From NCBI GenBank assembly GCA_964606405.1, contig CAZSGH010000002.1, positions 34,719-98,718 of the forward strand: a stretch of 64,000 nt of DNA. Reading direction: 5' to 3'. Of the stretch, positions 24,031 through 64,000 are shown in pieces. This DNA comes from an uncultured Francisella sp. Lineage in GTDB: Bacteria; Pseudomonadota; Gammaproteobacteria; Thiomicrospirales; Thiomicrospiraceae. Position numbers and translations under genes: made by a program. Position 1 is the stretch's first letter. Every line of letters begins with the position of its first letter. The notes under the pieces are model-generated. The model searched no databases and was not told the origin of the DNA. It was given only the letters and a program-made list of their open reading frames with translations.

Positions 24031-24032
24031 CG

Positions 24033-44627: not shown

Positions 44628-44641
44628 GCAGGTGCTTCCTT

Positions 44642-47706: not shown

Positions 47707-49074
47707 TCAAACATTATTGAACTGTATTCTATCAGAAGTCCACAATGCCATCGCCATCATTTTATCTAAGGATATTAGGCCTGCTGGAAAGATAAACTCC
47801 ATCTTATCTAGACTCACAGTTACTGGTTCACTGGTTTCGTCTGGTAGTTTGGGTGGATTAGGTACTTTAATAGCGTCCCACACCAACGTTTCGAGTTTTT
47901 CCTGTTTGTAAAAAGCCAGCTTTTTTGCCTTTTGTACAAGGTAAGCTTGCGAGTTCATTCCTAATACTTCAATGTTGACGGGCTTAGGTGTATCGAGAAG
48001 GACAAAGTCAGGCACAATAGCACCAACTCGATGTGTCAGTGGTTTTGCAAAGCGTCGTCCTTCTGCAACAAGCTTTGAAACCATAACCTCTTCGTAACTA
48101 CCTGCAATAGGAATAAAGTGGCGAGTCGTCATCATGATTGCCATGTCAGAAATCAGCATGCGCATATTCTTTTTAGAAGAATTAAACTTAAAAGCCTTTA
48201 CCAGCATGACAAAACAGTACTTGTTCTTGTCTGGTCGTGAAAAAGCCGCTAACTCACGCCCGAAGCTTCTAAATAGTCGGTCCGCTAATGATGGATGTAA
48301 ATAAAAGTTTTGCATACCGTGCATGAATTTGAGCTTGATATTGAATCCACCACTTTTGGCTTCATTGATAAACAGCAGTTCGCCCAACATAAACGATGCC
48401 GTGTCAGGTGATAAGCCATTTATTGCGACAGCTGTAAAGCCATCGACAGGCTTTACAGCTGTAGCTGGCTTCTTAATGACCGTAAGAGACTCTTTAAGTG
48501 ATTGCTTGCCGTTAAGAATAACGGGCGTATCTGTTAAGTAGTCATCCATTAAATGATGAACTGTGTTCCATGATCGAGGATACTGACGGTCAGGATACCA
48601 TTGATTCAGCCGCACCTGTTCCCACATGAAATGTAACAGTCCCAACATATTTGTTGGCGCTTCTATTCTTTTTGCATGAGCAGGTGCATAGTTTGCAATA
48701 TCACTACTGGCTGGCAACTCACCGATCTCATTTTTTCGACGGGTCAACAAACCAGCAAGTCGCACATTAATACTACCGTCACCACCTTGGGAAATCCCCA
48801 TTAAAGCATCTTTATTGGCACCAGCTTGAGGATCGTAATACAAATGACAGGTAAGCGCATGCTCGACCATAGTGCCAGTAGTCCGCATTAAGAAATAACG
48901 TTGTTTGACTCGCGAAGCTACCACATACATTGGAACACCTGAAGCCTGGCAATCACACATGGGATGATGTTTGCCTTCATAAGCGCGATGCAGCACATCC
49001 TGTGCAGCGTGGTTAAGTGGATCTGTTAACCAGTCAGCGCGATGTTTCTCATTCCCGATTGCAATACGACTCAT
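47707..49074 (-). CDS. Cys/His-cluster protein of unknown function (possibly DUF1173-like)
   Basis: 455 aa with HHPMCDCQ...HALTCH near the N-terminus. Its ATG overlaps the recombinase stop (ATGA). Confidence 0.5.
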   Translation of the reverse strand: MSRIAIGNEKHRADWLTDPLNHAAQDVLHRAYEGKHHPMCDCQASGVPMYVVASRVKQRYFLMRTTGTMVEHALTCHLYYDPQAGANKDALMGISQGGDGSINVRLAGLLTRRKNEIGELPASSDIANYAPAHAKRIEAPTNMLGLLHFMWEQVRLNQWYPDRQYPRSWNTVHHLMDDYLTDTPVILNGKQSLKESLTVIKKPATAVKPVDGFTAVAINGLSPDTASFMLGELLFINEAKSGGFNIKLKFMHGMQNFYLHPSLADRLFRSFGRELAAFSRPDKNKYCFVMLVKAFKFNSSKKNMRMLISDMAIMMTTRHFIPIAGSYEEVMVSKLVAEGRRFAKPLTHRVGAIVPDFVLLDTPKPVNIEVLGMNSQAYLVQKAKKLAFYKQEKLETLVWDAIKVPNPPKLPDETSEPVTVSLDKMEFIFPAGLISLDKMMAMALWTSDRIQFNNV

Positions 49075-49667: not shown

Positions 49668-50471
49668 TTACTGCGTCAGTATAAACTGGCTATTACATTT
49701 ATTGCAGGTGATATCTAGCGTTGGCTTTCCCCATAGATTTTCACCACACTCACATGTAAACTTACACTTACTTGTCATTGGTTTATTAGGGTGCACAGCC
49801 TGAACAGATACGCTTACTGCAGCAGTTTCTATAGCCGCATCCATACTATCCTCGGCGCTTGTGTTATCCAATGTGAGGTGAGGAACAACTAACAAGGATT
49901 CCGAAGCGTTTTCCAAAATTTCTACTGCAAAGTTACGATCACTCATCATCGAGTATGTGGATGTATTTTTGGGCAAGAAGCGATCGTACCAAGCAACGAT
50001 AAATCCTTGCTCAAATAGTTTGTTGCACACCATCATGAACTTGCCGTCGGCAATTGCGTAATCTGCCATTTTTTGACCTGTTTTCTTGCCACCAATGCGA
50101 CCTGTATCGCTTGGCATTAAACCGATACTCTCCATTTTCGTCGCCCACTCTTGATTGTGGTAACTTTTCTGGCTTGGTTTACCGTATTGAGTTTGCCAAA
50201 GGTGGCACATCTCATGAACAATCGTCTGTAATACTTCAATTAATGGCTTAATACCAAAGAAATCTGGATTTAATGCCAGTTCATGCGTAAAGGTATTCTT
50301 ATCTCCTACCGCTACAAATCGATTGTACGACATATATCCGTAGGTATTCGCTTGCCTCTGCAGTGTAATCAAACTATTGTCTAAGGTACCATCGAATAGT
50401 TCGATATTGAAAGTATCATAAGCATGTTGAAGTGCGCCGTACAATTGTGGAGTTGGCTTATTCTTAGTCAT
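49668..50471 (-). CDS. SprT-like zinc metallopeptidase-domain protein with C-terminal zinc ribbon
   Basis: HEMCHLWQ (HExxH) and C-terminal CKFTCECGENLWGK...CNKCN. Confidence 0.78.
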   Translation of the reverse strand: MTKNKPTPQLYGALQHAYDTFNIELFDGTLDNSLITLQRQANTYGYMSYNRFVAVGDKNTFTHELALNPDFFGIKPLIEVLQTIVHEMCHLWQTQYGKPSQKSYHNQEWATKMESIGLMPSDTGRIGGKKTGQKMADYAIADGKFMMVCNKLFEQGFIVAWYDRFLPKNTSTYSMMSDRNFAVEILENASESLLVVPHLTLDNTSAEDSMDAAIETAAVSVSVQAVHPNKPMTSKCKFTCECGENLWGKPTLDITCNKCNSQFILTQ

Positions 50472-51812: not shown

Positions 51813-52958
51813 ATGAATAAGTTAAATTCCCTCGTCATATGGGTCGACAACAAAGAAGAGCGAGATTGGTCAAATGAATCTCTGGAGCCAACATCTAGCG
51901 AGCCAGGGAACTCTTCCACTTCTCTAGAATTAGACATAAACATATGGAAGCCTGATGACGATAACGGCTATTTGGAGATTGGCTTTAAAATAATGAATTG
52001 GAGCAATAAGTCTTGTTTGCACTGTATCCTACCTTTTTCCTTAAAGCAAACCGAGATAGTCGATAAGAGCCCTTTTTTAAGAGAGCATCCTGCTGTTTTA
52101 GAGGCGCTGTTTAACGACTCGTTAAAGATAGAAACTCATGAATTCGATCCCAGATTTGCTAAGATAACACGTTCAGAATCAAATTTTTATCTATTTAGTC
52201 CAGAAAGAAACTTGCGTATAGAAGACACCAACAATGATGACAAGCAAGAGAACACACACATCATCGTTGATATTCCCAAAGACACTTCTAAATTAGATAA
52301 AATTGATATTTACGTCCGCTTGAGATTTAAACCTTCAAGTTATGCGCCAATAATCACCAATGAAAACCTACCCGCTAGATTTTTTTCTGGCATGTCTGAA
52401 AAAATGACTTTTATAGACTTTCGCATAAACTCCATGAGAAGCATATCTTATAGCTTACGAACAAAAGCCAAAAGCACCGAAATTAACAAGGTCAAGTTTT
52501 TTCTGATAGTTGATGCCTGGAGTCAAGTTGTAATGGGAACGATTAAAAACAACTCATCAAGGCTCTTAGAAGAACAAATCTGGAGTGATTTTGTAAACCA
52601 TAATACCGAATCAAAAGATAAATCATACTTAGCTCTTCAGTGGGTAAAATGTGCTTTAATTAATCCTTTGTCATCACTGTGGAACACAATAACACTCAAT
52701 AAACAATCAAGATCTATGTATTATGTGGCTTATAACTGGTCTGAAGACAGAACAGAGAAGCCAAAAATAGGTTATGACAATTTCATTAAAGTGAAAAGTT
52801 CAAAGAGTTCTCGACGCTCCTTTTTTATAACGATAGGTGCTATACTCTTTGCGGGATTTTTAGCCTCCACAATCGCCAACATATTTTGGAGTCATGAGCT
52901 AACCCAGTGTTATCTATCACTTGCACCACAACAGGAGCAAAAAAATGCAAGTAATTAA
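51813..52958 (+). CDS. Hypothetical protein with C-terminal TM anchor
   Basis: Start at MNKLNSL with a GGGAG RBS. 381 aa with no family recognised. Confidence 0.45.
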   Translation: MNKLNSLVIWVDNKEERDWSNESLEPTSSEPGNSSTSLELDINIWKPDDDNGYLEIGFKIMNWSNKSCLHCILPFSLKQTEIVDKSPFLREHPAVLEALFNDSLKIETHEFDPRFAKITRSESNFYLFSPERNLRIEDTNNDDKQENTHIIVDIPKDTSKLDKIDIYVRLRFKPSSYAPIITNENLPARFFSGMSEKMTFIDFRINSMRSISYSLRTKAKSTEINKVKFFLIVDAWSQVVMGTIKNNSSRLLEEQIWSDFVNHNTESKDKSYLALQWVKCALINPLSSLWNTITLNKQSRSMYYVAYNWSEDRTEKPKIGYDNFIKVKSSKSSRRSFFITIGAILFAGFLASTIANIFWSHELTQCYLSLAPQQEQKNASN

Positions 52959-53427
52959 TGATCTAAGTAAGACCATTAGCAAAGAGCTTACTAGCGAGGC
53001 GGTTGTAACTGCTTTTAATCTTACGAAATCAGCTTCTGCATTTTATCCAGACTACGATACATGGTTTTGGGGTAGTGTCGCTACTGACATAGCTATGACA
53101 GATGAAAGAAAAATTATTCTTGAGTATTCTGGTTTGGCAGCGGTAGGAGTATCGATTATTAAGAATACTCAGTTTGAGAAAAAGCTGTGCAACCTTACTG
53201 TGCATCCAAACTACCGAGATAAAGGCTTTGGGATTAAGCTGTTCGAAAAAAGCTTCGAAGAACTTGGTACAGATAAGCCATTTTTAACCGTCTCTGAAGA
53301 AAAGTACCTTGAGTTTGAACGTTTATTCAAGCACTACGGCTTTAGAGTAACGAGTGTTCACGATGCCTTATATAGACCAGGAAAAGTCGAATACTTCCTC
53401 AATGAGGATGTGTCTAAGATAGTGTAA
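52945..53427 (+). CDS. GNAT family N-acetyltransferase
   Basis: Start at MQVINDL with an AGGAG RBS. Motif A is YRDKGFGIKLFEKSF (RxxGxG). Confidence 0.68.
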   Translation: MQVINDLSKTISKELTSEAVVTAFNLTKSASAFYPDYDTWFWGSVATDIAMTDERKIILEYSGLAAVGVSIIKNTQFEKKLCNLTVHPNYRDKGFGIKLFEKSFEELGTDKPFLTVSEEKYLEFERLFKHYGFRVTSVHDALYRPGKVEYFLNEDVSKIV

Positions 53428-53432
53428 CGAAT

Positions 53433-53459
53433 CAGTGCCATACGAAAGACGTACGGCAC
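53433..53459. terminator. Hairpin between convergent genes
   Basis: AGTGCCATACG-aaaga-CGTACGGCACT with no strong U-tract. Confidence 0.4.
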
Positions 53460-53465
53460 TCGACT

Positions 53466-53846
53466 TTATCTATCCAAATAACAAAATGATTGTGGTGGTG
53501 TTTTAATCCCTAGGCTTCCTAAGTTGATAGGACTATCGTAACAAAACACTCGCCCCACCTTAATTGCATACCCTTTTCTCTTCCCTTCAAAGTAAGCATC
53601 AAAATATTTCCTATCAATTCCAGATCCTTGTGATGTTTTCTCCCACAATTCTGCTGGCGACATCTCGTAAACATCGTCAATGCTAAACTCTCCAACCACC
53701 TTCTGAACGGGACTAGATGCGTATATTACAACCGCACTGATATTAGGCTCCTTAAATACAGCACGCCTGAATTCGAACGTTTTCTCGCCAGAAAGAATTT
53801 TTTCTGCAAACTCTGGTTTTATTGACAGTAGCACTTTCATATTCAT
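53466..53846 (-). CDS. ASCH-domain protein
   Basis: 126 aa. KVLLSIKPEFAEKILSGEKTFEFRR is the typical ASCH N-terminal strand-helix-strand. Confidence 0.72.
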   Translation of the reverse strand: MNMKVLLSIKPEFAEKILSGEKTFEFRRAVFKEPNISAVVIYASSPVQKVVGEFSIDDVYEMSPAELWEKTSQGSGIDRKYFDAYFEGKRKGYAIKVGRVFCYDSPINLGSLGIKTPPQSFCYLDR

Positions 53847-53908
53847 ATTGCCTTTAATTTGTTGAGTTGATATTATACCACATCACATATTCAAATATTC
53901 AAATTAAA

Positions 53909-54244
53909 ATGAAAAAAAGCATAGACATAATCAATCGCTTACTAATTGATTGGAAAGAGAAAAACCCAAGAAAGCAACTATTAATTCAAGAAAAAACAGG
54001 AATAGATCAGTCCCAAGTTTCAAAAATACTATCTGGAAAATCAAGAAGGATATCAAACAACGTCATTAAAGTATGCAAATATGCAAAAATAGACATTGAT
54101 AGTGATGATAAATTAAAAGTCAGCGAACCACTAATGTCTGCGGTATTGAATGCTTGGGACGGCAGCAAAGAGTCAGAACTATTAATCATAGACATATTAA
54201 ATAATATCGGTAGACTTAGTACTCGTTCGTTCAGTTATGACTAA
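53909..54244 (+). CDS. HTH DNA-binding protein
   Basis: Start at MKKSIDIINRL. Contains IQEKTGIDQSQVSKILSGK. Divergent from the ASCH gene. Confidence 0.6.
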   Translation: MKKSIDIINRLLIDWKEKNPRKQLLIQEKTGIDQSQVSKILSGKSRRISNNVIKVCKYAKIDIDSDDKLKVSEPLMSAVLNAWDGSKESELLIIDILNNIGRLSTRSFSYD

Positions 54245-54407
54245 TTACCATTTACACAACGCTTTGCTCAGCTCTCGTCGCATTAGGTGAACAAGTTTTA
54301 TATCTATTTTGGATAAATAGGTCGCAAACATTTCTCTAATTCTGAGACTCGTGATAGATTTTATCTCGCAGCGACTTGCTGCAGCAAAATTAGAAGTGAC
54401 ATGCAAT

Positions 54408-54662
54408 ATGCAGAAACGAACTTTAACGCTCATCTTGTTTTCACTATCGGCTTCAGCCTACGCACATGAGGACATCAAAGAACAGCCTTACTGTATTTAT
54501 GCTGACCAGAAATTCTCTATTGGCAGTGAACAAAAAGAAACGTCAAACGACAATAGTCAAAGTAATACTGGTTGGATTTGCTATAGTTGTCCAACAGGAC
54601 CACAGTGGTTAAGCTTTAGTCAAACCAGTGTTTACAAGCCCACAAAAAACAATTGCCAGTAA
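54408..54662 (+). CDS. Small secreted Cys-containing protein
   Basis: Start at MQKRTLTLILFSLSASAYA (signal peptide). 84 aa. Confidence 0.45.
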   Translation: MQKRTLTLILFSLSASAYAHEDIKEQPYCIYADQKFSIGSEQKETSNDNSQSNTGWICYSCPTGPQWLSFSQTSVYKPTKNNCQ

Positions 54663-54691
54663 CAAAAAACCCACGCCTTACGGCGTGGGTT
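54662..54691 (-). terminator. Rho-independent terminator of the helicase gene
   Basis: AACCCACGCC-gtaa-GGCGTGGGTT followed by T6 on the minus strand. Confidence 0.7.
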
Positions 54692-54703
54692 CTTGCGGTA
54701 GTT

Positions 54704-57037
54704 TTATCCTCTACCAAGGAGTTGTTTGGCTAAGGCAACCTCAACACTGTCACCTGACTGGTTGAGGATGTCTAGCCCTGAATCTGGCATATCGCCAGAG
54801 GTTGATTGGCTAACGGTGATCTTCTTGGCCATGAGTTCTAGGCAGGTAATCTGCGCTGAGTCTCCATAGCCTAAAAAGTACACGTCGACGGGCAACTTCT
54901 GCCCAATACGCCAGGAGCGTCGCGCTGCCTGTTGTACCGTGTAGACGTTGTAACCTGTCTGCATAAACACGATGGTTGGGAACTGAAGCATATCGAGGCC
55001 TGTCTTAACCAGTTCGGGATTGGTGATGATGACATCAACACCTCGATCGACCTGGTCAAGTAACCAATCTTCACGCTTCGCAGCTTCTACACTGGCTTTG
55101 AGTACCGCCACTCGAAGCCCTTCGGCTTCAAGTAGTGACTTTAACCGCCCAGTGGTATCGCGTGTGCCGGTGTAAACGGTGTACACCAGCGTGCGACGAC
55201 CTCTAAGCTTCTCAGTTTTGCATATTTCCAGCATTCTTGCTTCCTTCGGAGAAATCTCCGTTTCGTCAAAAATGCTCGGTGCATAAGCCAGCGTTGAACG
55301 GTTATGCGGATGACGTACTGTTTCCGAACGGAAACAGGTATCTGGCCAAGCCAACAAAGTATTCAAAACAACACCCATTAATGAGGTATCACCTTTCGCC
55401 AATGCTTGTCTCAACTCAGACTGCAAACTCGATGCCATTTTGCTGTACATCTCACCTTGCATCGCTGTCATCTCAGCTTTCTCAAAATGCTCCTGGTAGG
55501 CTGGCAAAATATTGCCGCCAATATCCTTGAGTTTTAAGAATGCCGTGTAAGGTACCACGTAGCGCATGATGCCTTTTGGTCCAAAGCCTGGTGCTTTTGC
55601 GGATCTCGTATCAATCTGGTCGCCTTTAGCTGTTCGATGTGAACGACGTTCGCTATCGGAGCTTTTAACACGAGTAACTTCCTTAATCACACCATGCTGA
55701 CGCAAGAATGATTGCGCTGCGCTTCCTAACCCACCTTTACGGTAGGTGAAGCCATCTTCAATCATCAGTTTAGGATTGAGACGCCATAACAAGTAAAACA
55801 AGTCATCAGCGTAGCCACCCATGAGAGTGCCCGTTAATAGCAATGTCTTCTTGCACTTGCGTGCCAATACCGCCATTGCCTGACCTTGTGCCGAACCTTC
55901 GTTTTTATATTCGTGTCCTTCGTCCACGACTAATAAACCAAAGTAACCACTGGGTAGGTAACGTTTGATGAACTCGGTTGGCTGATAACCACCCTGCCCA
56001 AATGAAAACTCCATGCGTGACATAGCTCTTTCCATTCGTCGTGCCTGGTTATCGGTAAACACCAGTTCACCTTCGGCATCCATTAGGTTAATAAAGGAGT
56101 AAACATTGTCCTCCAGCATCTTACCTAGCCCATCACCAAAGGTATCGTACAAACGCTCAGCCGTTTTCTTGCCGATCGTTGGTATCTGCACCAGCGCATC
56201 CATGACAATTTCTTGTCGTGTTTTGGCCACTTCACCTTTTCTGCGTGATAACGTCCAAAGACGCTCACCGCAACAACGGCAGTTTTGACGTTTCTCATTC
56301 AAACGTAATTGCGCAGCATGAGGTGTCAATGGAATAGGCTCTTCATCGCTATGCAAAATGTGTGTACCACACTTAGGACAGGCGGCAACTTGTGTGTTGA
56401 CCGCTTCGCCCATTTCTCCATATTGACGATAACGACGCACTGCAAAAGCAGGACGCCAGTCAAAGCCCATTCGCATCCGGACACGCCCCATGACAAAAAA
56501 CTCTGGCACATCAGGCTTATCGAGCATATTGCGAATCAAGAGCAGTTTACGAAGCGTGTCTGGGCCATTGAGCACCCATACGCGTGCGTTAGGAACTGTT
56601 TCTAGTATTTCACGTCGCCACTTGTACACCAGGTGCGGTGGTGAAACCACCAAGGTACGCTGATAGCCCTCTGCGTGCATGACTGCTACAGCGCAAATGG
56701 CCATCATGGTTTTACCAGTACCCATTTCCGCATTAATGACGGACGCAGGCGCACCTTCATCAATCATCAATTTGGTAACGGCTTGCACCACGTCTTGCTG
56801 CTGCACGAATGGCTTACGTTTGAGACCATCCATCACTGCAAGGCGTTTTTCTGACTCGTCGTGAACAAGGTAAGTTGGGCGCAGTTGCGTTTTAACCGCG
56901 TCCATCAATGTGCCACCAAAATCCTTAATGAATTGGGACAAAGGCATCACATCGTCATTGGTAGGTTGATTCAACGCATCACCTAAGACACAGTTGTCAT
57001 CGGTAATATTGGTATCGTCAACAATGTTGTCGTTCAT
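54704..57037 (-). CDS. SNF2-family helicase with inserted zinc ribbon
   Basis: 777 aa with AEMGTGKT (motif I), VVDEGHEYKN (DEGH), an inserted CPKCG...CRCCGE, and QQAARRSWRIGQ (motif VI). Confidence 0.88.
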   Translation of the reverse strand: MNDNIVDDTNITDDNCVLGDALNQPTNDDVMPLSQFIKDFGGTLMDAVKTQLRPTYLVHDESEKRLAVMDGLKRKPFVQQQDVVQAVTKLMIDEGAPASVINAEMGTGKTMMAICAVAVMHAEGYQRTLVVSPPHLVYKWRREILETVPNARVWVLNGPDTLRKLLLIRNMLDKPDVPEFFVMGRVRMRMGFDWRPAFAVRRYRQYGEMGEAVNTQVAACPKCGTHILHSDEEPIPLTPHAAQLRLNEKRQNCRCCGERLWTLSRRKGEVAKTRQEIVMDALVQIPTIGKKTAERLYDTFGDGLGKMLEDNVYSFINLMDAEGELVFTDNQARRMERAMSRMEFSFGQGGYQPTEFIKRYLPSGYFGLLVVDEGHEYKNEGSAQGQAMAVLARKCKKTLLLTGTLMGGYADDLFYLLWRLNPKLMIEDGFTYRKGGLGSAAQSFLRQHGVIKEVTRVKSSDSERRSHRTAKGDQIDTRSAKAPGFGPKGIMRYVVPYTAFLKLKDIGGNILPAYQEHFEKAEMTAMQGEMYSKMASSLQSELRQALAKGDTSLMGVVLNTLLAWPDTCFRSETVRHPHNRSTLAYAPSIFDETEISPKEARMLEICKTEKLRGRRTLVYTVYTGTRDTTGRLKSLLEAEGLRVAVLKASVEAAKREDWLLDQVDRGVDVIITNPELVKTGLDMLQFPTIVFMQTGYNVYTVQQAARRSWRIGQKLPVDVYFLGYGDSAQITCLELMAKKITVSQSTSGDMPDSGLDILNQSGDSVEVALAKQLLGRG

Positions 57038-57060
57038 GGTGGTTCTCCATTTTTTGAAAT

Positions 57061-57107
57061 AAAAAAGGGAACCACCGCCCCTACAGGGATGTGATTCCCT
57101 GTAGGGT
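57061..57107 (-). promoter_or_regulatory. Intergenic RNA motif copy H1
   Basis: Minus strand: CCCTACAGGGA-atcaca-TCCCTGTAGGG-gc-GGTGGTTCCC-T6. GGGAATCAC can pair with GTGGTTCCC. Confidence 0.7.
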
Positions 57108-57159
57108 AAAATAAATGCGGCGCTACTTCTTATTCTGACAGTAACACCATCGCTCTAAA

Positions 57160-57252
57160 TTAGTGCTTTCGCATCATAATGTGAATACCAGAAATAATAA
57201 TCGCAACCAAAAAAATGGATACGGCTATTATTTTTGCAGTTTCATGATCCAT
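57160..57252 (-). CDS. 30-aa hydrophobic peptide
   Basis: MDHETAKIIAVSIFLVAIIISGIHIMMRKH. Its ATG shares a base with the upstream TGA. Confidence 0.3.
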   Translation of the reverse strand: MDHETAKIIAVSIFLVAIIISGIHIMMRKH

Positions 57253-57347
57253 CAATTGCTACTATTTTTATGCATCTGCCATACTGTATAGGCTAATGCC
57301 ATAACAACCAAACCCATAGCAATGACTTGCATTGTAAATGTGCTCAT
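57252..57347 (-). CDS. 31-aa hydrophobic peptide
   Basis: MSTFTMQVIAMGLVVMALAYTVWQMHKNSSN. It starts 2 nt after the stop of the 73-aa gene. Confidence 0.3.
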   Translation of the reverse strand: MSTFTMQVIAMGLVVMALAYTVWQMHKNSSN

Positions 57348-57349
57348 GA

Positions 57350-57571
57350 TTAAAGCTCCTTCAGTTTGCTAATTAACTTAAAAATTATGCGCTGAACAAT
57401 TAACCAAGTCGCAATTAAAGAAACAATCGCAACTAAAGCAAATCCTGATTTAACATCTTGTCCATCGTACAACACAAACCAACCAACGACAGCAAACAAG
57501 GCTGCCAGTACAATTGACAAGATCATTTTGTAAAAGCCAATTTCTTCTTTGACTTGATCAATTTCGGACAT
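57350..57571 (-). CDS. Small 2-TM membrane protein
   Basis: 73 aa with a GGAG RBS. Confidence 0.5.
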   Translation of the reverse strand: MSEIDQVKEEIGFYKMILSIVLAALFAVVGWFVLYDGQDVKSGFALVAIVSLIATWLIVQRIIFKLISKLKEL

Positions 57572-57589
57572 ATAAACTCCTATGTGTCG

Positions 57590-58051
57590 TTATTCTACTC
57601 CCACTGGTGACGCTTTGTCACCAGAGTCAGTAAATCGCAACAGCAGCTCATCAATATTGCCTATCGTCGCCCAAACCTCTTCATGTTCAGAATGTTTGAG
57701 AGGACAAAAGACGATCAAATCGCCATCGCTGTGCACCTTAACGTGTTCGCCATCCAGTCGGTAGTCAGTTTCGAACTCGATCAGACAGGTTTCTTTAAGG
57801 TCGAGACCTTCAAGGTTAACATCTATATCACCTATATCGCTCTTGTCACCATCGTCACCGACTTGATACATGATTGAGTCAACTGCCCACCAACGCACGG
57901 CATAGTGCATATTGGCTTGTTGCAGTATCACTTGCACCCGTTTCAATTGAACCAGCATCGCCTGTTCAATTTCAACGACCAGGTACTCAGGTAAATTGTC
58001 GATCTGTTCGATATTGTGTGATGCTTTGCACAACACTTTTAGTTTACTCAT
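57590..58051 (-). CDS. Acidic hypothetical ICE backbone protein
   Basis: 153 aa, preceded by motif H2. Confidence 0.55.
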   Translation of the reverse strand: MSKLKVLCKASHNIEQIDNLPEYLVVEIEQAMLVQLKRVQVILQQANMHYAVRWWAVDSIMYQVGDDGDKSDIGDIDVNLEGLDLKETCLIEFETDYRLDGEHVKVHSDGDLIVFCPLKHSEHEEVWATIGNIDELLLRFTDSGDKASPVGVE

Positions 58052-58075
58052 AGCGGCTCTCCATTTTTTTGAAAT

Positions 58076-58123
58076 AAAAAAAGGGAACCACCGCCCCTAC
58101 AGGGATGTGGTTCCCTGTAGGGT
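58076..58123 (-). promoter_or_regulatory. Intergenic RNA motif copy H2
   Basis: Near-identical to H1. GGGAACCAC pairs with GTGGTTCCC, followed by T7. Confidence 0.7.
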
Positions 58124-58146
58124 GTCAAAATTGAATAGGATTTGAA

Positions 58147-58422
58147 TTAGCTCGTTTTTAGCAACGCTACTTCTTCCCTCACAGCCTTTTTGATCAGCTC
58201 TTCAAGCGTTAATCCACCAGACTTTATGTATTGTCGTAAAACACGGTTAATCTCTGTCTGATAACCGATTCCTTCGCTCAATGCTCTGGCTTTGAAGTCC
58301 CTTACAATGTCATCATCTAGATACATCGTTACTCGCACTTTTCCACCCTCTTCTCGAAGCTTGTTCAAATGCGGAACTTCCGTGGCTCGCTTTGCTTTAC
58401 TGAAATCATATTCCGCTTTCAT
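58147..58422 (-). CDS. brnA: BrnA-type antitoxin
   Basis: Start at MKAEYDFSKAKR. 91 aa, overlapping the brnT stop by 17 nt. Confidence 0.75.
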   Translation of the reverse strand: MKAEYDFSKAKRATEVPHLNKLREEGGKVRVTMYLDDDIVRDFKARALSEGIGYQTEINRVLRQYIKSGGLTLEELIKKAVREEVALLKTS

Positions 58423-58681
58423 AGTCAGCCTTCTCCTTGCCAGTTGCTTTTCGTGCAGAAATGAATCTGATCGTATCCTCATGTCTAAGGGCATATACAA
58501 CCAGTAGCACTCGCTCTTTCTTACTCTTACCAAGCAGCAAAAAACGCTCTTCATCAATAGATTCAGAGTCCTCCATAACCAAAGCAAATGGATCATAGAG
58601 CGACTCTTCAGCTTCATCGAATGTAACGCCATGCTTTTGAAAGTTCTTCTGAGCTTTTTGCTCATCGTATTCTATTTTCAT
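58406..58681 (-). CDS. brnT: BrnT-type (DUF497) toxin
   Basis: Start at MKIEYDEQKAQKNFQKHGVTFDEAEE, with ..IRFISARKATGKE. Confidence 0.78.
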   Translation of the reverse strand: MKIEYDEQKAQKNFQKHGVTFDEAEESLYDPFALVMEDSESIDEERFLLLGKSKKERVLLVVYALRHEDTIRFISARKATGKEKADYESGI

Positions 58682-58725
58682 GATTTTATTATACACACGA
58701 AATACATATAAAAATAGAAGCAACA

Positions 58726-59373
58726 TCAAACATGACTCACCTCCAGTACACCACTTTTGACCATATTGGAAACATAGGATGGAAAATCGCATCCCATGAA
58801 GTCCTTGGCTTGTTTGCTATCAAGATCAACTCGCCAGCAACGCACACCAATAGACAGTCTTAGATCATTCCCTTGTGACATATCAGATACAATCGCACCT
58901 GTTTTAGCTAAAGCGTTCATAATCGCTATACGCCATGAGTCCATTAAAGGAATGGGTGACAGTCGTTTAATGACTGACCATATCCTTAAATCGACATCAT
59001 ATTCATCATATTGACCTCGCAGTAACATCCAACGCACCTGGTTACTCATATCATCTTGAACGATAGACTCATCGTAAATAAATGTATGTACCAGGTTAGC
59101 CCCAAACAGACCGTTCGGTAAACGACCGGCTGTTTTAGTTAAGCGATCGCTGCTACCAATTAATAGCTTCCGTTCCCTACTCTCATAGTCAAAAGACAAT
59201 GACGTTAAGCCTCCATTGAATTTTGCTAAGGCAAAGGACGCAAACAATCGGTTAATTGACGCATCATAGCCATAACATGACATCATCATGATTTGTCCGT
59301 GTTCATCGGCAATAATGGCATCACACATGACGCCATCTACTTCGTTAAACTGAATGAGCGCACTCATACTCAT
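58726..59373 (-). CDS. Hypothetical ICE backbone protein
   Basis: Start at MSMSALIQF with an AGGAG RBS. 215 aa. Confidence 0.55.
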   Translation of the reverse strand: MSMSALIQFNEVDGVMCDAIIADEHGQIMMMSCYGYDASINRLFASFALAKFNGGLTSLSFDYESRERKLLIGSSDRLTKTAGRLPNGLFGANLVHTFIYDESIVQDDMSNQVRWMLLRGQYDEYDVDLRIWSVIKRLSPIPLMDSWRIAIMNALAKTGAIVSDMSQGNDLRLSIGVRCWRVDLDSKQAKDFMGCDFPSYVSNMVKSGVLEVSHV

Positions 59374-59389
59374 AATAGCTCTCCTAATC

Positions 59390-59436
59390 AAAAGAGAAGC
59401 CAGTCCCCACAAAGGAAATTAGCTTCCCTTAATGGG
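59390..59436 (-). promoter_or_regulatory. Intergenic RNA motif copy H8 (degenerate)
   Basis: Minus strand: CCCATTAAGGGAAGC..TTCCTTTGTGGGG..GCTTCTC-TTTT. Confidence 0.45.
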
Positions 59437-59443
59437 TTAATGA

Positions 59444-59926
59444 TTATTTTTTAATCAGGTTATTTTCTGCAAATGAAAAACTAGCGTTGCCCACAATAAT
59501 ATGATCAACAACTTTGACATCAATGGCTTTCAAAGAATCCACTAAATAATCCGTTAGTTTTTTATCCGCATTGCTTGGCTCTGTGTCTCCACTCGGATGG
59601 TTATGAGCGAAAATGACAGCGGCTGCATTGCGCTCTAGCAACTCTTTAATGATGTTTCTTGAATATACAGGTGATTCAGAAATACTACCTCTTGAAAGCT
59701 CGCACCAGTCTAGGACCTGCAATTTTGCATTTAATGCAAGCATTCCAAAATGCTCTTCTTTCAAACCTCGCAAACGATGCTCCACCATCGGTATAACATC
59801 CTTAGTAGATCGAATATTTACCATATTGGTTGAGAGCGCCATTGCAGCATAATGAGAAGCTGCTTCAAACACTGCTAGTGCTTTTGCGGGTTGATACCCT
59901 TTTTTTGTTTTAATGTATAGTTCCAT
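59444..59926 (-). CDS. radC: RadC-like JAB-domain protein
   Basis: 160 aa with HNHPSGDTEPSNADKKLT (JAMM motif). Confidence 0.9.
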   Translation of the reverse strand: MELYIKTKKGYQPAKALAVFEAASHYAAMALSTNMVNIRSTKDVIPMVEHRLRGLKEEHFGMLALNAKLQVLDWCELSRGSISESPVYSRNIIKELLERNAAAVIFAHNHPSGDTEPSNADKKLTDYLVDSLKAIDVKVVDHIIVGNASFSFAENNLIKK

Positions 59927-59944
59927 GCCATATCTCCTAAATAG

Positions 59945-59988
59945 AAAAAGGCACGCTTCCCCTATTGGGCAGCGATGCCCAATAGGGT
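59945..59988 (-). promoter_or_regulatory. Intergenic RNA motif copy H3
   Basis: Minus strand: CCCTATTGGGCA-tcgc-TGCCCAATAGGG-gaa-GCGTGCC-T5. Confidence 0.65.
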
Positions 59989-59998
59989 GTAAAGAAAT

Positions 59999-60247
59999 TT
60001 AGCTAATCGCTATATTCATTAGGTGATAGCTACCATCAGCGATACCCCAAGTCATATAACAGCCTTGAATTTGAATAATATCGCCTCTGCCCTTGGTTAG
60101 ATCATCTAACCAAAGAACATCATCGTTTGAGATTGGAAAATAAGGGTGTGTTAGCATCCTCACTGCCTGGTGAAAATCATCAGGTAAGCTCATGCTAGTT
60201 AACACAACAGATCGCTTCCAATTACGGGGGAGTTTAGTCAGTGCCAT
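59999..60247 (-). CDS. Hypothetical protein
   Basis: 82 aa, 15 nt downstream of the MTase gene. Confidence 0.45.
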   Translation of the reverse strand: MALTKLPRNWKRSVVLTSMSLPDDFHQAVRMLTHPYFPISNDDVLWLDDLTKGRGDIIQIQGCYMTWGIADGSYHLMNIAIS

Positions 60248-60262
60248 GGTGTTTTAGTATCC

Positions 60263-61345
60263 CTAGCGTATCGTCATCAAGCGACCGTAATTGTCACCGG
60301 GCGTTAGTTCGATACCCTTGATGATGGGAACAAAACGATCTAAACGAGTGATGGTTAAATTGCCGTCTTCGTCCATTTCGCGTCGTTCGTCCTTTTCCTT
60401 AAAGGTGTTACCCTTAATCAGCAAAGTTCGTCCATCATCACTATTGACGACACCCTCGATGTAGCCAGCAGCTAATGCCAAAGCCAAATGCCATTGTGTT
60501 AAATCACGCAAAGGCTTGGGTACGGCAGATTGAGACACGCCACCAAACATGGCATCAAAACCACCCCAAAGCGTTGCCTTGTTGTGTTTTTGAATCTCCA
60601 CTGCTAACTGTTCTGGCTCAAGCCGAACAATTCGCATGATAGGTAGCTGTCGCATTTCTGGAATGACATACGGATCTTGTGACGGATAATCTGGTAACTC
60701 AGGTGGTAGTTGACCACCACCAATTGACTCCAGTCGCTTAGCTGTTGCGGCATCCGTTGTGGATGATGCACGTTTCTTAGCGATAATCACGCACTGTTTG
60801 AATTGCTGCTCCGGTGCCATATAAGCCTGAACATCATAAAACCACTTGGTGATCATCAAGGAAAATTCCTTGTCGAGCACGTAGTAGGGAACGATCATTA
60901 CCAGCACACCATCGGACTGAAGTGTCGAGAAGGTTCGTCTGAAGAAAACTTTCTCCAGACGATCGGTACCTCGAGCATCACCCAATCCAGCCTTGTCGGT
61001 CACAATTTGACCGTAAGGTGGATTGAGCCACAGCAAGCCATAAGCGCGTAATGAAAGATTTACCTCGTTTAAGTCAGAATGAACGACTTGGTTCACTCGA
61101 TCACTTGCTGCGAGATAACGATCTCGATTGATCTCAACACCATGAGTTAGAATACTAGTCGGTTGCTCAAATTGTCTGACGACATCTGCAACCGCCAAAC
61201 CTTCGCCACAACACGGGTCAAGCAAGGAAAAATTAGTTGATGATGAATCCAATAGATAAGCGCAGCGCTTAACTGTTTCATCATCTGTGCGGTAATAGCC
61301 ATCTTGCGCATAGTTATGGGCAAGACGGTCAAACATGAGTGCCAT
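60263..61345 (-). CDS. Orphan SAM-dependent DNA methyltransferase (NPPY type)
   Basis: LDPCCGEG (motif I) and LWLNPPYG (motif IV). No adjacent endonuclease. Confidence 0.78.
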   Translation of the reverse strand: MALMFDRLAHNYAQDGYYRTDDETVKRCAYLLDSSSTNFSLLDPCCGEGLAVADVVRQFEQPTSILTHGVEINRDRYLAASDRVNQVVHSDLNEVNLSLRAYGLLWLNPPYGQIVTDKAGLGDARGTDRLEKVFFRRTFSTLQSDGVLVMIVPYYVLDKEFSLMITKWFYDVQAYMAPEQQFKQCVIIAKKRASSTTDAATAKRLESIGGGQLPPELPDYPSQDPYVIPEMRQLPIMRIVRLEPEQLAVEIQKHNKATLWGGFDAMFGGVSQSAVPKPLRDLTQWHLALALAAGYIEGVVNSDDGRTLLIKGNTFKEKDERREMDEDGNLTITRLDRFVPIIKGIELTPGDNYGRLMTIR

Positions 61346-61358
61346 AGTCGCTCTCCTT

Positions 61359-61401
61359 AAAAGGGAACGACTCCCCTACTGGGTGGCGTTCCCAGTAGGG
61401 T
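61359..61401 (-). promoter_or_regulatory. Intergenic RNA motif copy H4
   Basis: Minus strand: CCCTACTGGG-aacgcca-CCCAGTAGGG-gagt-CGTTCCC-TTTT. Confidence 0.65.
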
Positions 61402-61442
61402 GATAGAAAACAGCCCCGCGATGCGAGGCTATTGTTTGTTGA

Positions 61443-61565
61443 TTAACCTAAAATATTAGGTTTTGATTGTACTTCTGCTTCTCGCCTAGTAACTTCTTTC
61501 ACGAGGAAATGTGCGCCAATAGCAAGCAAGCCAAGAAATAGTGATACTGCCAGTACGCCTAACAT
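61443..61565 (-). CDS. 40-aa hydrophobic peptide
   Basis: AGGAG RBS. Sequence MLGVLAVSLFLGLLAIGAHFLVKEVTRREAEVQSKPNILG. Followed by a hairpin plus TTTT at 61411..61432. Confidence 0.35.
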   Translation of the reverse strand: MLGVLAVSLFLGLLAIGAHFLVKEVTRREAEVQSKPNILG

Positions 61566-61566
61566 A

Positions 61567-61848
61567 TCAGACTCCTTTAGACTTTGATAACGATACCAAG
61601 TATATACCAAACGCCAAAATTGGCAAAGACAACAAAATCAATAAATGATCTTGATGTTCAAGGCCTCTAACTACGTCGTACACGCCTTTTGATGCAATTG
61701 CAATTGCTGAAAAAACAGTTTTTTCACCAATGCTGTACATCAGCTTCAAAACACCTTCTTTTCCAAGAGAAACTAATGTCTCCCAAGTATAAATGAGCAG
61801 CATCCAAACAGGAATGGACACGAAGTAAACGGTTAATATAGTCGTCAT
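61567..61848 (-). CDS. Small 3-TM membrane protein
   Basis: Start taken at MTTILTVYF. Confidence 0.45.
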   Translation of the reverse strand: MTTILTVYFVSIPVWMLLIYTWETLVSLGKEGVLKLMYSIGEKTVFSAIAIASKGVYDVVRGLEHQDHLLILLSLPILAFGIYLVSLSKSKGV

Positions 61849-61859
61849 GGTATCAACCC

Positions 61860-62459
61860 CTAGACCTTCTGCCAAACTTGAGCAATTGGGTCAAACTTAT
61901 AACCATTAGCCTTCAGATAATCACGTTGCTGTCTAAACAGCTCACGATCTATCGTTGGGTCAAGTGTTATGGGTTGCCCTCCTGCGAGCACTGTTTCTAG
62001 TGTTTCAGGGTCGGCACCAAACAACTTGTTAACCAAGTCATCATCTTGCTTTGGTGACAACACCGTTCCAGTTTCTGCCTCATCAGAATCAGAGCCAACA
62101 AATACCGTTGGCAACTGAATAATAGGCGGCATCCTAACTGTTGACTGTTGCTCCACAATAGGATCTTGCACCGGTGGTGCATCTGAGGTCTGATCGACCT
62201 CATCTGAGTGAGTGGATAAGATAATATCAGCCAGTTTTGCTCTAACTTCAATCATTACTTTTCCACGCCACGCCCATGAATGTGGGTAAATTTGCTCAAC
62301 GAGAAATATGCCCTCATAGGTGCCAGGCTCAAACTGGTCAAGAATAGCATCGACGACTTTAAAGTCACCGATACCTGTTGTGAGATCACCAACAGAAAAG
62401 CTTCCATTTCTGCCAGTGACTGATTTAACAGCAATTTTGCCTTCGAGACGAATAGTCAT
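61860..62459 (-). CDS. DUF3275-like ICE backbone protein
   Basis: Start at MTIRLEGKIAVKSVTGRNGSFSVGDL with an AAGGAG RBS. The N-terminal pattern is typical of DUF3275. Confidence 0.6.
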   Translation of the reverse strand: MTIRLEGKIAVKSVTGRNGSFSVGDLTTGIGDFKVVDAILDQFEPGTYEGIFLVEQIYPHSWAWRGKVMIEVRAKLADIILSTHSDEVDQTSDAPPVQDPIVEQQSTVRMPPIIQLPTVFVGSDSDEAETGTVLSPKQDDDLVNKLFGADPETLETVLAGGQPITLDPTIDRELFRQQRDYLKANGYKFDPIAQVWQKV

Positions 62460-62482
62460 GGTATGACTCCTTATTTTGTTTG

Positions 62483-62532
62483 AAAATTCGGAGCACACCA
62501 AGCCCAACGGGACAGTCATGCCCCGATTGGGT
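62483..62532 (-). promoter_or_regulatory. Intergenic RNA motif copy H5
   Basis: Minus strand: CCCAATCGGGGCA-tgac-TGTCCCGTTGGG..TGCTCC-gaATTTT. Confidence 0.55.
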
Positions 62533-62558
62533 TAAGTAAAAAACACTAATGTGTAAGA

Positions 62559-62771
62559 TTAATAATTAGGTTCAGCTAATAGCATCATGCCTTTAGATAA
62601 GGTGATATGCTCACCCAATTCAAAAGACAACTCGACCACCAAGGTGATCCAGCACTTGGCGCATAGCGCATTAAGTTCTGATCCCTCGCAGGCAGTGATG
62701 ACTTTTCCTGTACGCTGCTTGAAGTCATCGTACAATTCTTTTAACTGGAACTTGGTTGATATAGTTTTCAT
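62559..62771 (-). CDS. Hypothetical small protein
   Basis: 70 aa, preceded by motif H6. Confidence 0.45.
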   Translation of the reverse strand: MKTISTKFQLKELYDDFKQRTGKVITACEGSELNALCAKCWITLVVELSFELGEHITLSKGMMLLAEPNY

Positions 62772-62787
62772 GGTGTATCTCTTAAGT

Positions 62788-62830
62788 GGAATACACCAAC
62801 CCCTTGGGAATAATGTATCCCCGTGGGTAA
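62788..62830 (-). promoter_or_regulatory. Intergenic RNA motif copy H6 (no U-tract)
   Basis: Minus strand: ACCCACGGGGATACA..TTCCCAAGGGGT..GTGTATTCC. Confidence 0.5.
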
Positions 62831-62845
62831 AGGTATTTTTTGAAA

Positions 62846-63027
62846 TTAAGCTGCACGAACACCAATTTTGACATTAGTGTTCCGCTCATTAATGACGCCG
62901 ATCGCTTTTAATCGACGCACGGCAGAAAACCATGCATCCATCGATGTTCGCGCGACAACTTCAATGACTTCATGACGTGCGATATTGTGTTGATAAAACT
63001 GCATATCGACGAGGTATAGTTTGTTCA
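62846..63027 (-). CDS. Hypothetical small protein
   Basis: Start taken at MNKLYLVDMQF with a GGAGAA RBS. The longer track ORF would run through motif H7. Confidence 0.4.
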
Positions 63028-63049
63028 TAAGGTTCTCCAATTTGAAAAC

Positions 63050-63091
63050 AAAAAGGAACCTTACCCCACTGGGATTGGTTCCCAGAGGGTT
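63050..63091 (-). promoter_or_regulatory. Intergenic RNA motif copy H7
   Basis: Minus strand: ACCCTCTGGGA-accaa-TCCCAGTGGGGT-aa-GGTTCC-T5. Confidence 0.6.
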
Positions 63092-63181
63092 GTTGAGTGA
63101 TGACACCGAGGCATCGCCGCGTGTGTCTGTTTGATATGTGTCAGTTATTGTGCTGACTGATTGAAGGTTACGTCCCGCCAA

Positions 63182-63432
63182 AAGGCTAGTTGCTCGAAGG
63201 GACTTAGCAACAATATTCCTAAGATAGCATCAAATTAATGCCACCTTAGGAATATCACTGTAACGTGATACCCAGGAATTCATGCCAGTGTTACTGGCTC
63301 ATGATAAAGCCTGGTCATTCGGGGTGACCGCCCCTATTTATTAATTTGAAACTGAGTAATACCGCCTGTTCACACAGGTTCTTCCAAATATCCGACGGGA
63401 CACTTGGAAGAACCTGCAAGGCAGGTCCAAAG
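63182..63432. ncRNA. ORF-free region with eight consecutive local hairpins (structured RNA or ssDNA element; strand unknown)
   Basis: Stems include GTTGCT/AGCAAC (63189..63211), ATTCCTAAG/CTTAGGAAT (63215..63253), ATCAC/GTGAT, CCAGT/ACTGG, GGTCA/TGACC, CCTG/CAGG, GGTTCTTCCAA/TTGGAAGAACC (63377..63414) and CCTGC/GCAGG. Confidence 0.4.
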
Positions 63433-63434
63433 AG

Positions 63435-63542
63435 TTAGTGTTTGCCGTGATCTCGCTGATATTTCAACCATAAGACCAATACAGTCGCTGCGACCGCAAC
63501 AAATAAGCTGAAGCCCATAACGAAAATATCCATATCAGACAT
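63435..63542 (-). CDS. 35-aa hydrophobic peptide
   Basis: GAAGGAG RBS. Sequence MSDMDIFVMGFSLFVAVAATVLVLWLKYQRDHGKH. Confidence 0.35.
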   Translation of the reverse strand: MSDMDIFVMGFSLFVAVAATVLVLWLKYQRDHGKH

Positions 63543-63584
63543 AATAATTTACTCCTTCACAAAACCAAGCACAGAAGTGCCAAA

Positions 63585-63722
63585 TTATTTTTTAGCTTGA
63601 AGTCCACGCTCTGTCACTTTGCTCATCCAATCAAGAAGGTCTTTCACTAATAGGAGTGGAGCAAAGAAACCTCGAGGCGTTTCTTTCATTCCAATAATAA
63701 ATCCTTTCATAAAGTCACTCAT
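63585..63722 (-). CDS. Small hypothetical protein
   Basis: Start at MSDFMKGF, overlapping the upstream stop by 8 nt. Confidence 0.4.
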   Translation of the reverse strand: MSDFMKGFIIGMKETPRGFFAPLLLVKDLLDWMSKVTERGLQAKK

Positions 63723-63975
63723 GGTCAAGTTCCTCAATCGCTTTTTTGGTTGATGTAACCAACCACCAAACAAAGACTACGGCATCAACGATAAAAATGA
63801 TTTTATCGATATACCCCAGTAGTGTAATGATTAGCCAGTCAAATATGATCCCTTCTGCGTAGTGTACCAAAGAGTGAATACTAATGGTTACAACGACTAA
63901 AAAAGAAAACATCAGTGCGCCAAATATGAGATGAGAAGCAAACTCACCAGCAACTTGTTTATTAGATTTAGCCAT
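63715..63975 (-). CDS. Small 3-TM membrane protein
   Basis: 86 aa with a GGAG RBS. Confidence 0.5.
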   Translation of the reverse strand: MAKSNKQVAGEFASHLIFGALMFSFLVVVTISIHSLVHYAEGIIFDWLIITLLGYIDKIIFIVDAVVFVWWLVTSTKKAIEELDHE

Positions 63976-64000
63976 AAAAGCTCCTCTGGTTAGGTTAAAA

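Follow-up and report, generated by a model that had tools for sequence, protein, structure and literature searches.

IncC plasmids and elements of the SXT/R391 group are major carriers of multidrug resistance. A review describes, upstream of bet in SXT and likewise in IncA/C plasmids, a 'strong translational attenuator' and reports, citing Garriss et al. 2013, that it lowers translation and not transcription (PMC4542580). A structure predicted to sequester vcrx089's ribosome-binding site in the IncC plasmid pVCR94 has been proposed to explain a polar effect (Roy et al. 2020, PMC7498323). The ssb-bet-exo and vcrx089-090 genes contribute to the survival of restriction and CRISPR systems on entry into a new host (PMC7498323). 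Here a repeated RNA motif is described that precedes eight genes of a conjugative element in 64,000 nucleotides of DNA (the window) from an uncultured Francisella sp. (contig CAZSGH010000002.1, positions 34,719 to 98,718). Each copy is probably a translational attenuator that acts in cis as a module of the operon mRNA, a switching lock with two alternative predicted folds, designated A + C and B' below.

The motif consists of a conserved hairpin (hairpin A), a variable segment (x') and the ribosome-binding region of the following gene. Read on the minus strand, the order is A-CCC-(U/A)A-nn-GGG, a loop of 4–9 nt, CCC-nn-UA-GGG-G, x', usually a run of uridines (U-run), a GGAG resembling a Shine-Dalgarno (SD) sequence, a spacer of 5–9 nt and ATG. 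Segment x' has 10–13 nt and a 3' end of CCC, UCC or CUC. It is complementary both to x, which comprises the 3' end of the 5' arm of hairpin A together with the loop, and to x'', which lies in the ribosome-binding region; the helix formed with the latter is hairpin C. Hairpin A starts 55–72 nt before the ATG and x' ends 16–31 nt before it, which corrects the distance of 25–45 nt given in an earlier note made from the sequence alone. The consensus hairpin of that note stands, with imperfect stems in H5, H6 and H8, and its U(4–7) directly after x' holds for six of the eight copies; in H5 the run follows after three intervening bases, and H6 has none.

As that note had proposed, a covariance model (R1) was built. 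Its seed comprises 20 copies, four from the window (H2, H3, H4 and H7) and 16 from ten other genomes, and includes no SXT or IncC sequence. With filters off, an R1 search of the whole window yields precisely eight full-length matches (E 3e-14 to 2e-6), all on the minus strand within 57035-63092 and each reaching a start codon. Below these come plus-strand echoes of hairpin A, which is palindromic, and then noise at E ~1. Matches to a strict regular expression for hairpin A are confined to the same 6-kb stretch; an earlier hairpin scan was too permissive to be informative. The eight minus-strand copies first reported are thus borne out by R1, the coordinates then given being the 3' end of each U-run. 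The copies, with their parts and the open reading frames (ORFs) that they precede, are as follows (MFE, minimum free energy).

H1, 57035-57109, minus strand: before the gene for a 777-aa SNF2-type helicase (54704-57037; Pfam SNF2/ResIII/Helicase_C); R1 61.1 bits, E 3e-14, not in seed; hairpin A 57106-57079, x' 57078-57067, then the U-run, hairpin C 57076-57038, ATG 57037; MFE fold A + C.
H2, 58049-58125, minus strand: before a 153-aa ORF (57590-58051); R1 59.2 bits, in seed; hairpin A 58122-58095, hairpin C 58092-58052, ATG 58051.
H8, 59371-59439, minus strand: before a 215-aa ORF (58726-59373); R1 31.9 bits, E 1.4e-6, not in seed; hairpin A 59436-59406 (imperfect), hairpin C 59402-59376, ATG 59373.
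H3, 59924-59990, minus strand: before radC (59444-59926; Pfam RadC 1e-38); R1 53.4 bits, in seed; hairpin A 59987-59960, hairpin C 59955-59924 including the AUG; MFE fold A + C.
H4, 61343-61403, minus strand: before a DUF6094 methyltransferase gene (60263-61345); R1 50.9 bits, in seed; hairpin A 61400-61374, hairpin C 61372-61346.
H5, 62457-62534, minus strand: before a DUF3275 gene (61860-62459; Pfam 2.8e-37); R1 31.3 bits, E 1.9e-6, not in seed; hairpin A 62531-62503 (one bulge), hairpin C 62500-62459.
H6, 62769-62830, minus strand: before a 70-aa ORF (62559-62771); R1 32.2 bits, E 1.2e-6, not in seed; hairpin A 62827-62800 (3x3 internal loop), hairpin C 62798-62771; neither a U-run nor a canonical GGAG.
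H7, 63026-63092, minus strand, first of the array: before a 60-aa ORF (62846-63028); R1 47.8 bits, in seed; hairpin A 63089-63065 (one U-U mismatch), hairpin C 63064-63027.

Spacing between copies is approximately 300–1400 nt, with one copy per gene and variable loops. The eight motif-bearing genes stand as first described, but they are not strictly successive, since only 8 of the ~17 minus-strand ORFs of the array carry the motif. Those without it (the BrnT/BrnA pair and small membrane proteins) lie within 20 nt of the ORF in front.

When folded through the start codon, all eight copies give an MFE structure in which hairpin A is followed directly by hairpin C and the SD is paired. Hairpin C consists of x' paired with the downstream gene's SD and spacer, often also with its AUG (in H1, with GGAG and AACCACC), and the U-run is placed in its loop or paired with an A-run. 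Predicted stabilities are -12 to -21 kcal/mol for A and -10 to -19 kcal/mol for C. Because x' pairs with the SD region in the MFE fold of every copy, it is, as far as these folds predict, an anti-SD sequence. This third partner was overlooked in the earlier note, which saw two of the three pairings; x' pairs more strongly with the SD, spacer and AUG. The GGG and loop that make up x resemble a ribosome-binding region (GGGAAUCAC compared with GGAGAACCAC in H1). H1 and H2 have an identical x', and their x'' differ at three positions (AACCACC and AGCCGCU); all three changes keep the pairing as G-U, which is possible only on the minus-strand (sense) RNA. In an ensemble model of 105 copies, the median probability that the SD is unpaired is 0.015.

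The motif is not restricted to this element. A pattern scan of species-representative genomes gave 89 loci, about the number expected by chance, and became informative after filtering for complementarity and context: 50 matches have complementary central dinucleotides, and many of those loci hold further arrayed copies. At E<=1e-3, R1 identifies 116 copies in 90 sources (the scan loci and the window) in beta- and gammaproteobacterial elements. The hosts include Pseudomonas, Paraburkholderia, Burkholderia, Comamonas, Gallionella, Sideroxydans, Cysteiniphilum and Francisella, as well as Thiotrichales, Legionella and Paraglaciecola metagenome-assembled genomes and a Halomonas plasmid. One Pseudomonas locus (L084, 62% GC) has 11 matches in 8 kb. 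Two loci (L080 and L064) are near-identical to the window, whose own element occurs in several metagenome assemblies; a blastn search of the 6-kb region against plasmids gave no match. The motif always has the orientation of the downstream gene. The ORFs that follow it encode DUF3150, CobT/VWA, MoxR-type AAA ATPase, RecT/Bet, YqaJ/Exo, RadC, SNF2 helicase, SSB, ArdC-N, DUF3275 and DUF3799 proteins and three kinds of DNA methyltransferase, orphan methyltransferases among them, which is an establishment and anti-restriction repertoire.

Three further loci were reached independently of the hairpin-A pattern, an IncC plasmid (L091) and the IncP-7 plasmid pCAR1 (L090) by protein search, and an integrative and conjugative element (ICE) locus (L096) through a cluster of Bet homologues. 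The last is called SXT/R391-like on the basis of its gene order and of that Bet cluster (592 members), not of annotation. The IncC locus has 24 plus-strand matches (E<0.01) over 18 kb, including the starts of ssb, bet, exo, dcm and the DUF3150 and VWA genes. These end at annotated start codons, apart from one at a likely unannotated ORF. Between 6070 and 24488, the ~60–95-nt gaps between successive backbone genes are each filled almost exactly by one copy, and four copies have the CCC of hairpin A immediately after the stop codon of the upstream gene. There are seven R1 matches in pCAR1, and eight in the SXT/R391-like ICE, including those before bet, exo, the AAA ATPase gene, the DUF3150 and VWA genes and radC.

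At these loci the motif coincides with both of the described structures. The R1 match before bet in the IncC plasmid (9659-9738, E 7e-9) ends at the annotated bet ATG, and another precedes the RecT-family gene (bet) of the SXT/R391-like ICE (7938-8003, E 5e-4). Both fold as A + C, and occlusion of the ribosome-binding site is predicted computationally for the window, IncC and SXT-like copies alike. Operon type (ssb-bet-exo-AAA-DUF3150-VWA-radC) and position before the start codon are also those of the described bet attenuator. A match at the homologous AAA ATPase gene start (7098-7165 of the IncC locus, E 0.005) corresponds to the vcrx089 structure, for which the same SD sequestration was proposed. 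The family defined by R1 therefore includes the bet and vcrx089 sites, and the window copies, although the window has no bet, are new members of the SXT/IncC attenuator kind because they belong to the same family. The differences lie in number and architecture. The bet attenuator is described for one gene only in the sources cited above, and the vcrx089 structure is a single prediction in Roy et al. 2020 and not a member of a repeated family, whereas the motif occurs here before eight genes and at 24 sites in the IncC locus. Further features are the conserved hairpin upstream and a competing third pairing. In the searchable literature, which did not extend to Garriss et al. 2013, no description was found of recurrence before most genes of an operon, of the conserved hairpin A or of the three-way pairing.

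Covariation is observed in all of the proposed pairings. Among 96 distinct family members, helix A is paired in 89% and six of its ten pairs have changed on both sides; helix C, whose register is variable, is paired in 64%, with changes on both sides at ten of ten pairs. The covariation score is 0.297, compared with 0.153 in shuffles (reached by 0 of 500) and 0.08–0.13 with slid partners. The first central pair of helix A occurs as CG (28), AU (19), UA (12) and GC (8), and the second as GC (28), AU (15), CG (14) and UA (9), so that the stem-A covariation first noticed in the window (ACA/UGU, AUU/AAU and ACU/AGU) is confirmed and extends to four pair types across the family. The possibility that the motif is simply a DNA repeat without covariation in a larger alignment, which the earlier note had allowed for, does not agree with these data. 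The 96-row alignment was fitted to the model and thus leans towards the structure. A register-free test was applied to one representative of each distinct x' (n=63), comparing the duplex energy of cognate segments with that of partners taken from other copies. For x:x', the cognate energy is -10.3 kcal/mol against -6.5 when permuted (z = -14, 0 of 5000 permutations), and the second pairing noticed earlier, of x with x', is therefore real and gene-specific. For x':x'' the values are -13.2 and -8.3 kcal/mol (z = -15, 0 of 5000). A same-sense control, x:x'', gives -4.33 and -3.98 kcal/mol (z = -1.8, with 200 of 5000 permutations at or below the cognate value). In fixed columns, the x:x' pairing (pairing B) has a covariation score of 0.263, compared with 0.212 in controls (0 of 500) and 0.12–0.18 with slid partners.

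Individual copies show the same behavior. Between H4 and its orthologue in L080, x changes from GGGAACG to GGGAGC and x' from CGUUCCC to CGCUCCC, with x'' still paired; the A to G in x and the U to C in x' occur together and keep both pairings. Segments x and x'' are not always identical, and both pair with a G/U-rich x' through wobbles (for example in L076), which argues for selection on the pairings themselves and not for a duplicated sequence.

The predictions show A + C and B' as encoded alternative folds, and A and x:x' are mutually exclusive, in agreement with the first option of the earlier note. Fold B' comprises an outer x:x' helix and an inner CCC..GGG mini-hairpin derived from the 3' arm of A; its predicted energy in the window is -15 to -23 kcal/mol. 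In the proposed ground state (OFF), hairpin A would be followed by hairpin C, in which x' would hold the SD, the spacer and often the AUG and so keep ribosomes off. Segment x, mimicking the ribosome-binding region, would compete for x', and B' would be the ON state, with SD and AUG left free. Hairpin A would thus be a lock on an anti-anti-SD. When the nascent transcript is modeled as RNA ending 18 nt after A, before x'' exists, B' with cognate tails is favored over the A fold by 2.2 kcal/mol on average and is at least equal to it in 70% of copies, whereas with non-cognate tails the A fold is favored by 3.7 kcal/mol and B' is at least equal to it in 19% (p = 6e-16). The difference between B' and A ranges from -4.6 to +3.9 kcal/mol in the window copies. 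Once x'' is present in the full-length RNA, A + C is ahead by at least 10 kcal/mol. Blocking the first six bases of A in the model raises the median probability of an unpaired SD to 0.27 (n=105); a block extending over the entire 5' arm, x included, gives 0.01, and one of the 3' arm 0.08. An anti-anti-SD held within hairpin A would be expected to give such a pattern. In H8, the modeled probability rises from 0.002 to 0.98 with the first 6 nt of A blocked.

Such a switch might be triggered by capture of the outer 5' bases of A, either by a factor or by a terminating ribosome where the upstream stop codon is 0–8 nt away. It might also depend on a metastable B' formed co-transcriptionally, which would give each new mRNA a brief translatable window before refolding to A + C, or on both. 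A purely kinetic switch fits the modeled energetics equally well. The stop codon lies 0–8 nt before A in 20 of 94 copies, 11–31 nt in 41 and further away in the rest, and in the window only H8 falls into the first group (7 nt). Because so few copies have the stop this close, opening by ribosomes can be only part of the story, and translational coupling as a general trigger was rejected, the distances being too variable. A promoter at each copy was likewise rejected, since sigma-70-like sites are not systematically found upstream (12 compared with 15 expected). Binding of CsrA was also considered. The sequence UACAGGGA in H1 and H2 resembles the site obtained by systematic evolution of ligands by exponential enrichment, but GGA is absent from H3, H5 and many relatives, where present it lies inside the stem, and no csrA-like ORF was detected among the array products. 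As a separate observation, a CsrA gene is located at 21853-22026 of the pCAR1.2 locus (L090), beside a gene with a KorB domain and ~5 kb from the pCAR1 motif copies.

The earlier note had favored an intrinsic terminator as the shared device. B' and the U-run would then terminate transcription, A would act as anti-terminator, and the choice between them would set read-through along the operon. At least four U follow the GC-rich base of B' directly in six of the eight window copies, B' is strong and, on the nascent window transcript, nearly isoenergetic with A, and T>=4 runs occur in 32 of 40 copies at loci below 48% GC. A consensus terminator scan also calls H1 and H2, although only these two, and through a smaller GGGG..CCCU hairpin. 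The U-run nevertheless tracks the GC content of the host, being present in 10 of 18 copies at 48–52% GC and in 3 of 29 at >=52%; none of the latter has five or more T, while A, x' and hairpin C persist. In the IncC plasmid, moreover, reverse-transcription PCR is reported to link vcrx087, vcrx089 and bet on one mRNA spanning several copies, and the same paper describes the hde operon as a single mRNA (PMC7498323). Because the U-run follows base composition and the IncC mRNA spans copies, termination is not the conserved function of the family. With A as the read-through state, the SD would still be buried by C, which would leave both states OFF and make little regulatory sense, and the U's double as the loop or A-run partner of hairpin C. 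We therefore regard the terminator as an unlikely explanation. In this low-GC element the U-run is most likely compositional, or a partner of the A-rich stretch before the SD, and at the six window copies it might cause some polarity at most. The other option of the earlier note, an H-type pseudoknot formed by pairing of the loop of A with x' on an intact stem A, draws on the complementarity of loop bases to x', and the loop-only duplex is indeed slightly better for cognate than for permuted pairs (-2.4 against -1.2 kcal/mol). Most of the x:x' energy, however, requires the GGG of the stem, and in many relatives the loop has 3–4 nt, so that x lies mostly inside the stem. By standard pseudoknot geometry, in which loops must cross stems, a linker of 1–3 nt is too short for a stem of 10–12 bp, and the 5' arm is separated from the loop segment by 0 nt. 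The pseudoknot is thus sterically implausible and can be given very little credence.

Hairpin A itself could have another role, as a recognition or processing element (which the earlier note had also considered) for an RNA-binding protein or endoribonuclease of the element or host, or as an intercistronic stabilizer shielding the cistrons on either side, with C an ordinary SD-occluding hairpin and x:x' playing no part in switching. It is conserved beyond pairing, with invariant CC..GG ends, a frequent UA/UA step, an A at -1 in 81% and a G after the stem in 61%, and upstream ORFs never overlap it. This conservation suggests recognition by a factor, although part of it may reflect ascertainment bias, as most loci were fetched with an A-like pattern. 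Recognition alone does not need the gene-specific complementarity of x and x' (z = -14), and no RNA-binding domain was found by Pfam among the products of the array ORFs. As the main function it appears rather improbable; it is compatible with the translational lock, for which such a factor could be the trigger. A role at the DNA level (a palindromic operator, a recombination or cassette boundary, or a hairpin on the transferred strand acting as priming signal or single-stranded DNA promoter) might be suggested by the palindromic nature of hairpin A in DNA, by the leading-region or establishment type of the genes, and by the long Frpo-like hairpins just upstream of the array. In addition, the strand asymmetry of G-U over A-C in helix A is weak (36 compared with 26). 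Against this, the motif is always oriented with the downstream gene and ends at its start codon; the central pairs take all four Watson-Crick forms and loop length ranges between 3 and 10 nt, unlike a dimeric DNA-binding site. Complementarity of x' to SD and AUG is meaningful only in mRNA, the differences between H1 and H2 are tolerated only as G-U on the sense RNA, and no sigma-70 promoter was found at the copies. A DNA-level function is thus highly improbable.

Several points weigh against the switching translational lock as well. All of the structural results are computational, and for the window element this reading rests on sequence and predicted folds. In the model, blocking the base of A clearly opens the SD in only three of the eight window copies, and that cells switch between A + C and B', like the nature of the trigger, is something we infer. 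A GC-rich hairpin and a following U-run are present in six of the eight window copies, where some termination may occur. In fixed column register, B is paired in 67.8% compared with 62.5% in controls, a modest excess. The weak G-U asymmetry given above counts here too, and the tests of sense against antisense stability carry bias from the way in which copies were selected. Part of the architecture may already be described in Garriss et al. 2013.

Comparison with other described RNAs did not identify the motif. Rfam 15 has no family at these sites in the window or in the IncC, pCAR1, Pseudomonas, Sideroxydans and Thiotrichales loci, and cmscan searches of the whole window at the gathering score, of 52000-64000 at E<=10 and of six related loci gave nothing real; weak matches to the AilA thermometer, CyaR, isrJ and a small nucleolar RNA were attributed to chance. 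The scans that the earlier note had proposed thus yielded a widespread family without an Rfam match. PAGEV, which that note had mentioned, is another motif. It is associated with plasmid replication origins, mainly in Vibrionales (PMC5737381); it shares plasmid association in gammaproteobacteria and has no cmscan match here, where the copies are intercistronic leaders in an ICE operon and not an origin-like region. STAXI (RF01728) is also a repeated small structure, found near ssb, topoisomerase, anti-restriction and integrase genes. It consists of tandem pseudoknot units with UNCG loops, unlike the present motif with one copy per gene and variable loops, and has no cmscan match. The radC RNA motif (RF01754) occurs in the 5' untranslated regions of radC, methyltransferase, anti-restriction and integrase genes of proteobacterial mobile elements (Weinberg et al. 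2010, PMC2864571). This context is shared (H3 precedes radC and H4 the DUF6094 methyltransferase gene) and is one of context only, not of membership: there is no cmscan match at E<=10, and the seed alignment has a larger, different architecture of multiple hairpins. In rows of the radC.sto alignment (PMC2864571 supplement), the flank between motif and start resembles, by eye, a hairpin of CCC..GGG type with an SD-sequestering hairpin after it, so that both motifs may co-occur in the same leaders.

In mechanism, the nearest parallels are repZ/repA of IncI-alpha/IncB plasmids, where pairing of a hairpin loop next to the ribosome-binding site activates translation, and hok mRNA, which folds through a metastable state. 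As proposed for the present motif, a sequence within an upstream hairpin competes with a helix that occludes the SD, and the fold of the nascent RNA is not that of the full-length RNA. The repZ and hok systems each control a single replication or toxin gene in single copy, through a leader peptide or antisense RNA; the present motif, in contrast, has no leader ORF, no antisense partner was found, and it is repeated before many unrelated genes.

The window begins with chromosomal genes that, read from their translations alone, resemble the rpsP/rimM/trmD/rplS operon and ffh. The element then begins with the first of the following features.

4044-4958: tyrosine integrase.
5742-7907: T4 coupling protein.
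7912-10320: TraI_2 (MOBH) relaxase.

F-type TraC and TraG_N follow the relaxase (regions 1-10320 and 18525-29234). In relaxase and mating-pair type the element agrees with SXT/R391, IncC and pCAR1. Within the array, a BrnT/BrnA toxin-antitoxin pair (58147-58726, minus strand) is without a copy of the motif, and there is an overlap (TGATG) between the start of BrnT and the stop of the H8 gene.

BrnT, ~58406-58726, minus strand: toxin of the BrnT/BrnA pair.
BrnA, 58147-58422, minus strand: antitoxin of the same pair (Pfam 1.4e-11).

Between the small membrane ORFs and H4, a GC-rich hairpin is followed by UUUU (61407-61430, minus strand; AGCCUCGCAUCGCGGGGCU GUUUU). Because this canonical hairpin and UUUU lie before H4, the methyltransferase gene after H4 may depend on read-through or a promoter of its own. 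Upstream of H7, a gap of 350 nt (63093-63470, minus strand) is strongly structured (MFE -144 kcal/mol, z = -8.6), with two near-perfect hairpins of ~20 bp at roughly 63418-63372 and 63262-63212. These could be leading-region signals (single-stranded DNA promoters or priming sites), an mRNA leader, or terminators of upstream small ORFs. Downstream of the array, on the same strand and without the motif, are genes for a TIR-domain protein (43446-44717), a DUF1173 protein (47707-49074) and an SprT-like protein (49668-50471).

As SD-sequestering leaders, the repeats of the window are ordinary in kind; they are unusual in number, modularity and conservation. R1 separates the true copies cleanly, with eight in 64 kb and then noise, and describes a family missing from Rfam 15. 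More broadly, and only tentatively, the family might be a hitherto unrecognized class of multi-copy riboregulators that places one operon-wide, switchable translational gate on the establishment and anti-defense genes of MOBH-type elements. If nearly every gene of such an operon carries the three-part lock, expression would be gated after transcription by one mechanism. A single reporter design would then suffice for its study, the mechanism would perhaps be targetable, and the motif would offer a sequence signature for finding such operons. If this broader proposal is true, the gated elements would include SXT/R391, IncA/C, IncP-7 and many ICEs of beta- and gammaproteobacteria. The handle shared by all copies would be hairpin A, read by a factor encoded by the element or host or by the kinetics of co-transcriptional folding, and joint translation of the gated genes would be limited to a brief period, such as the time right after arrival in a new host.

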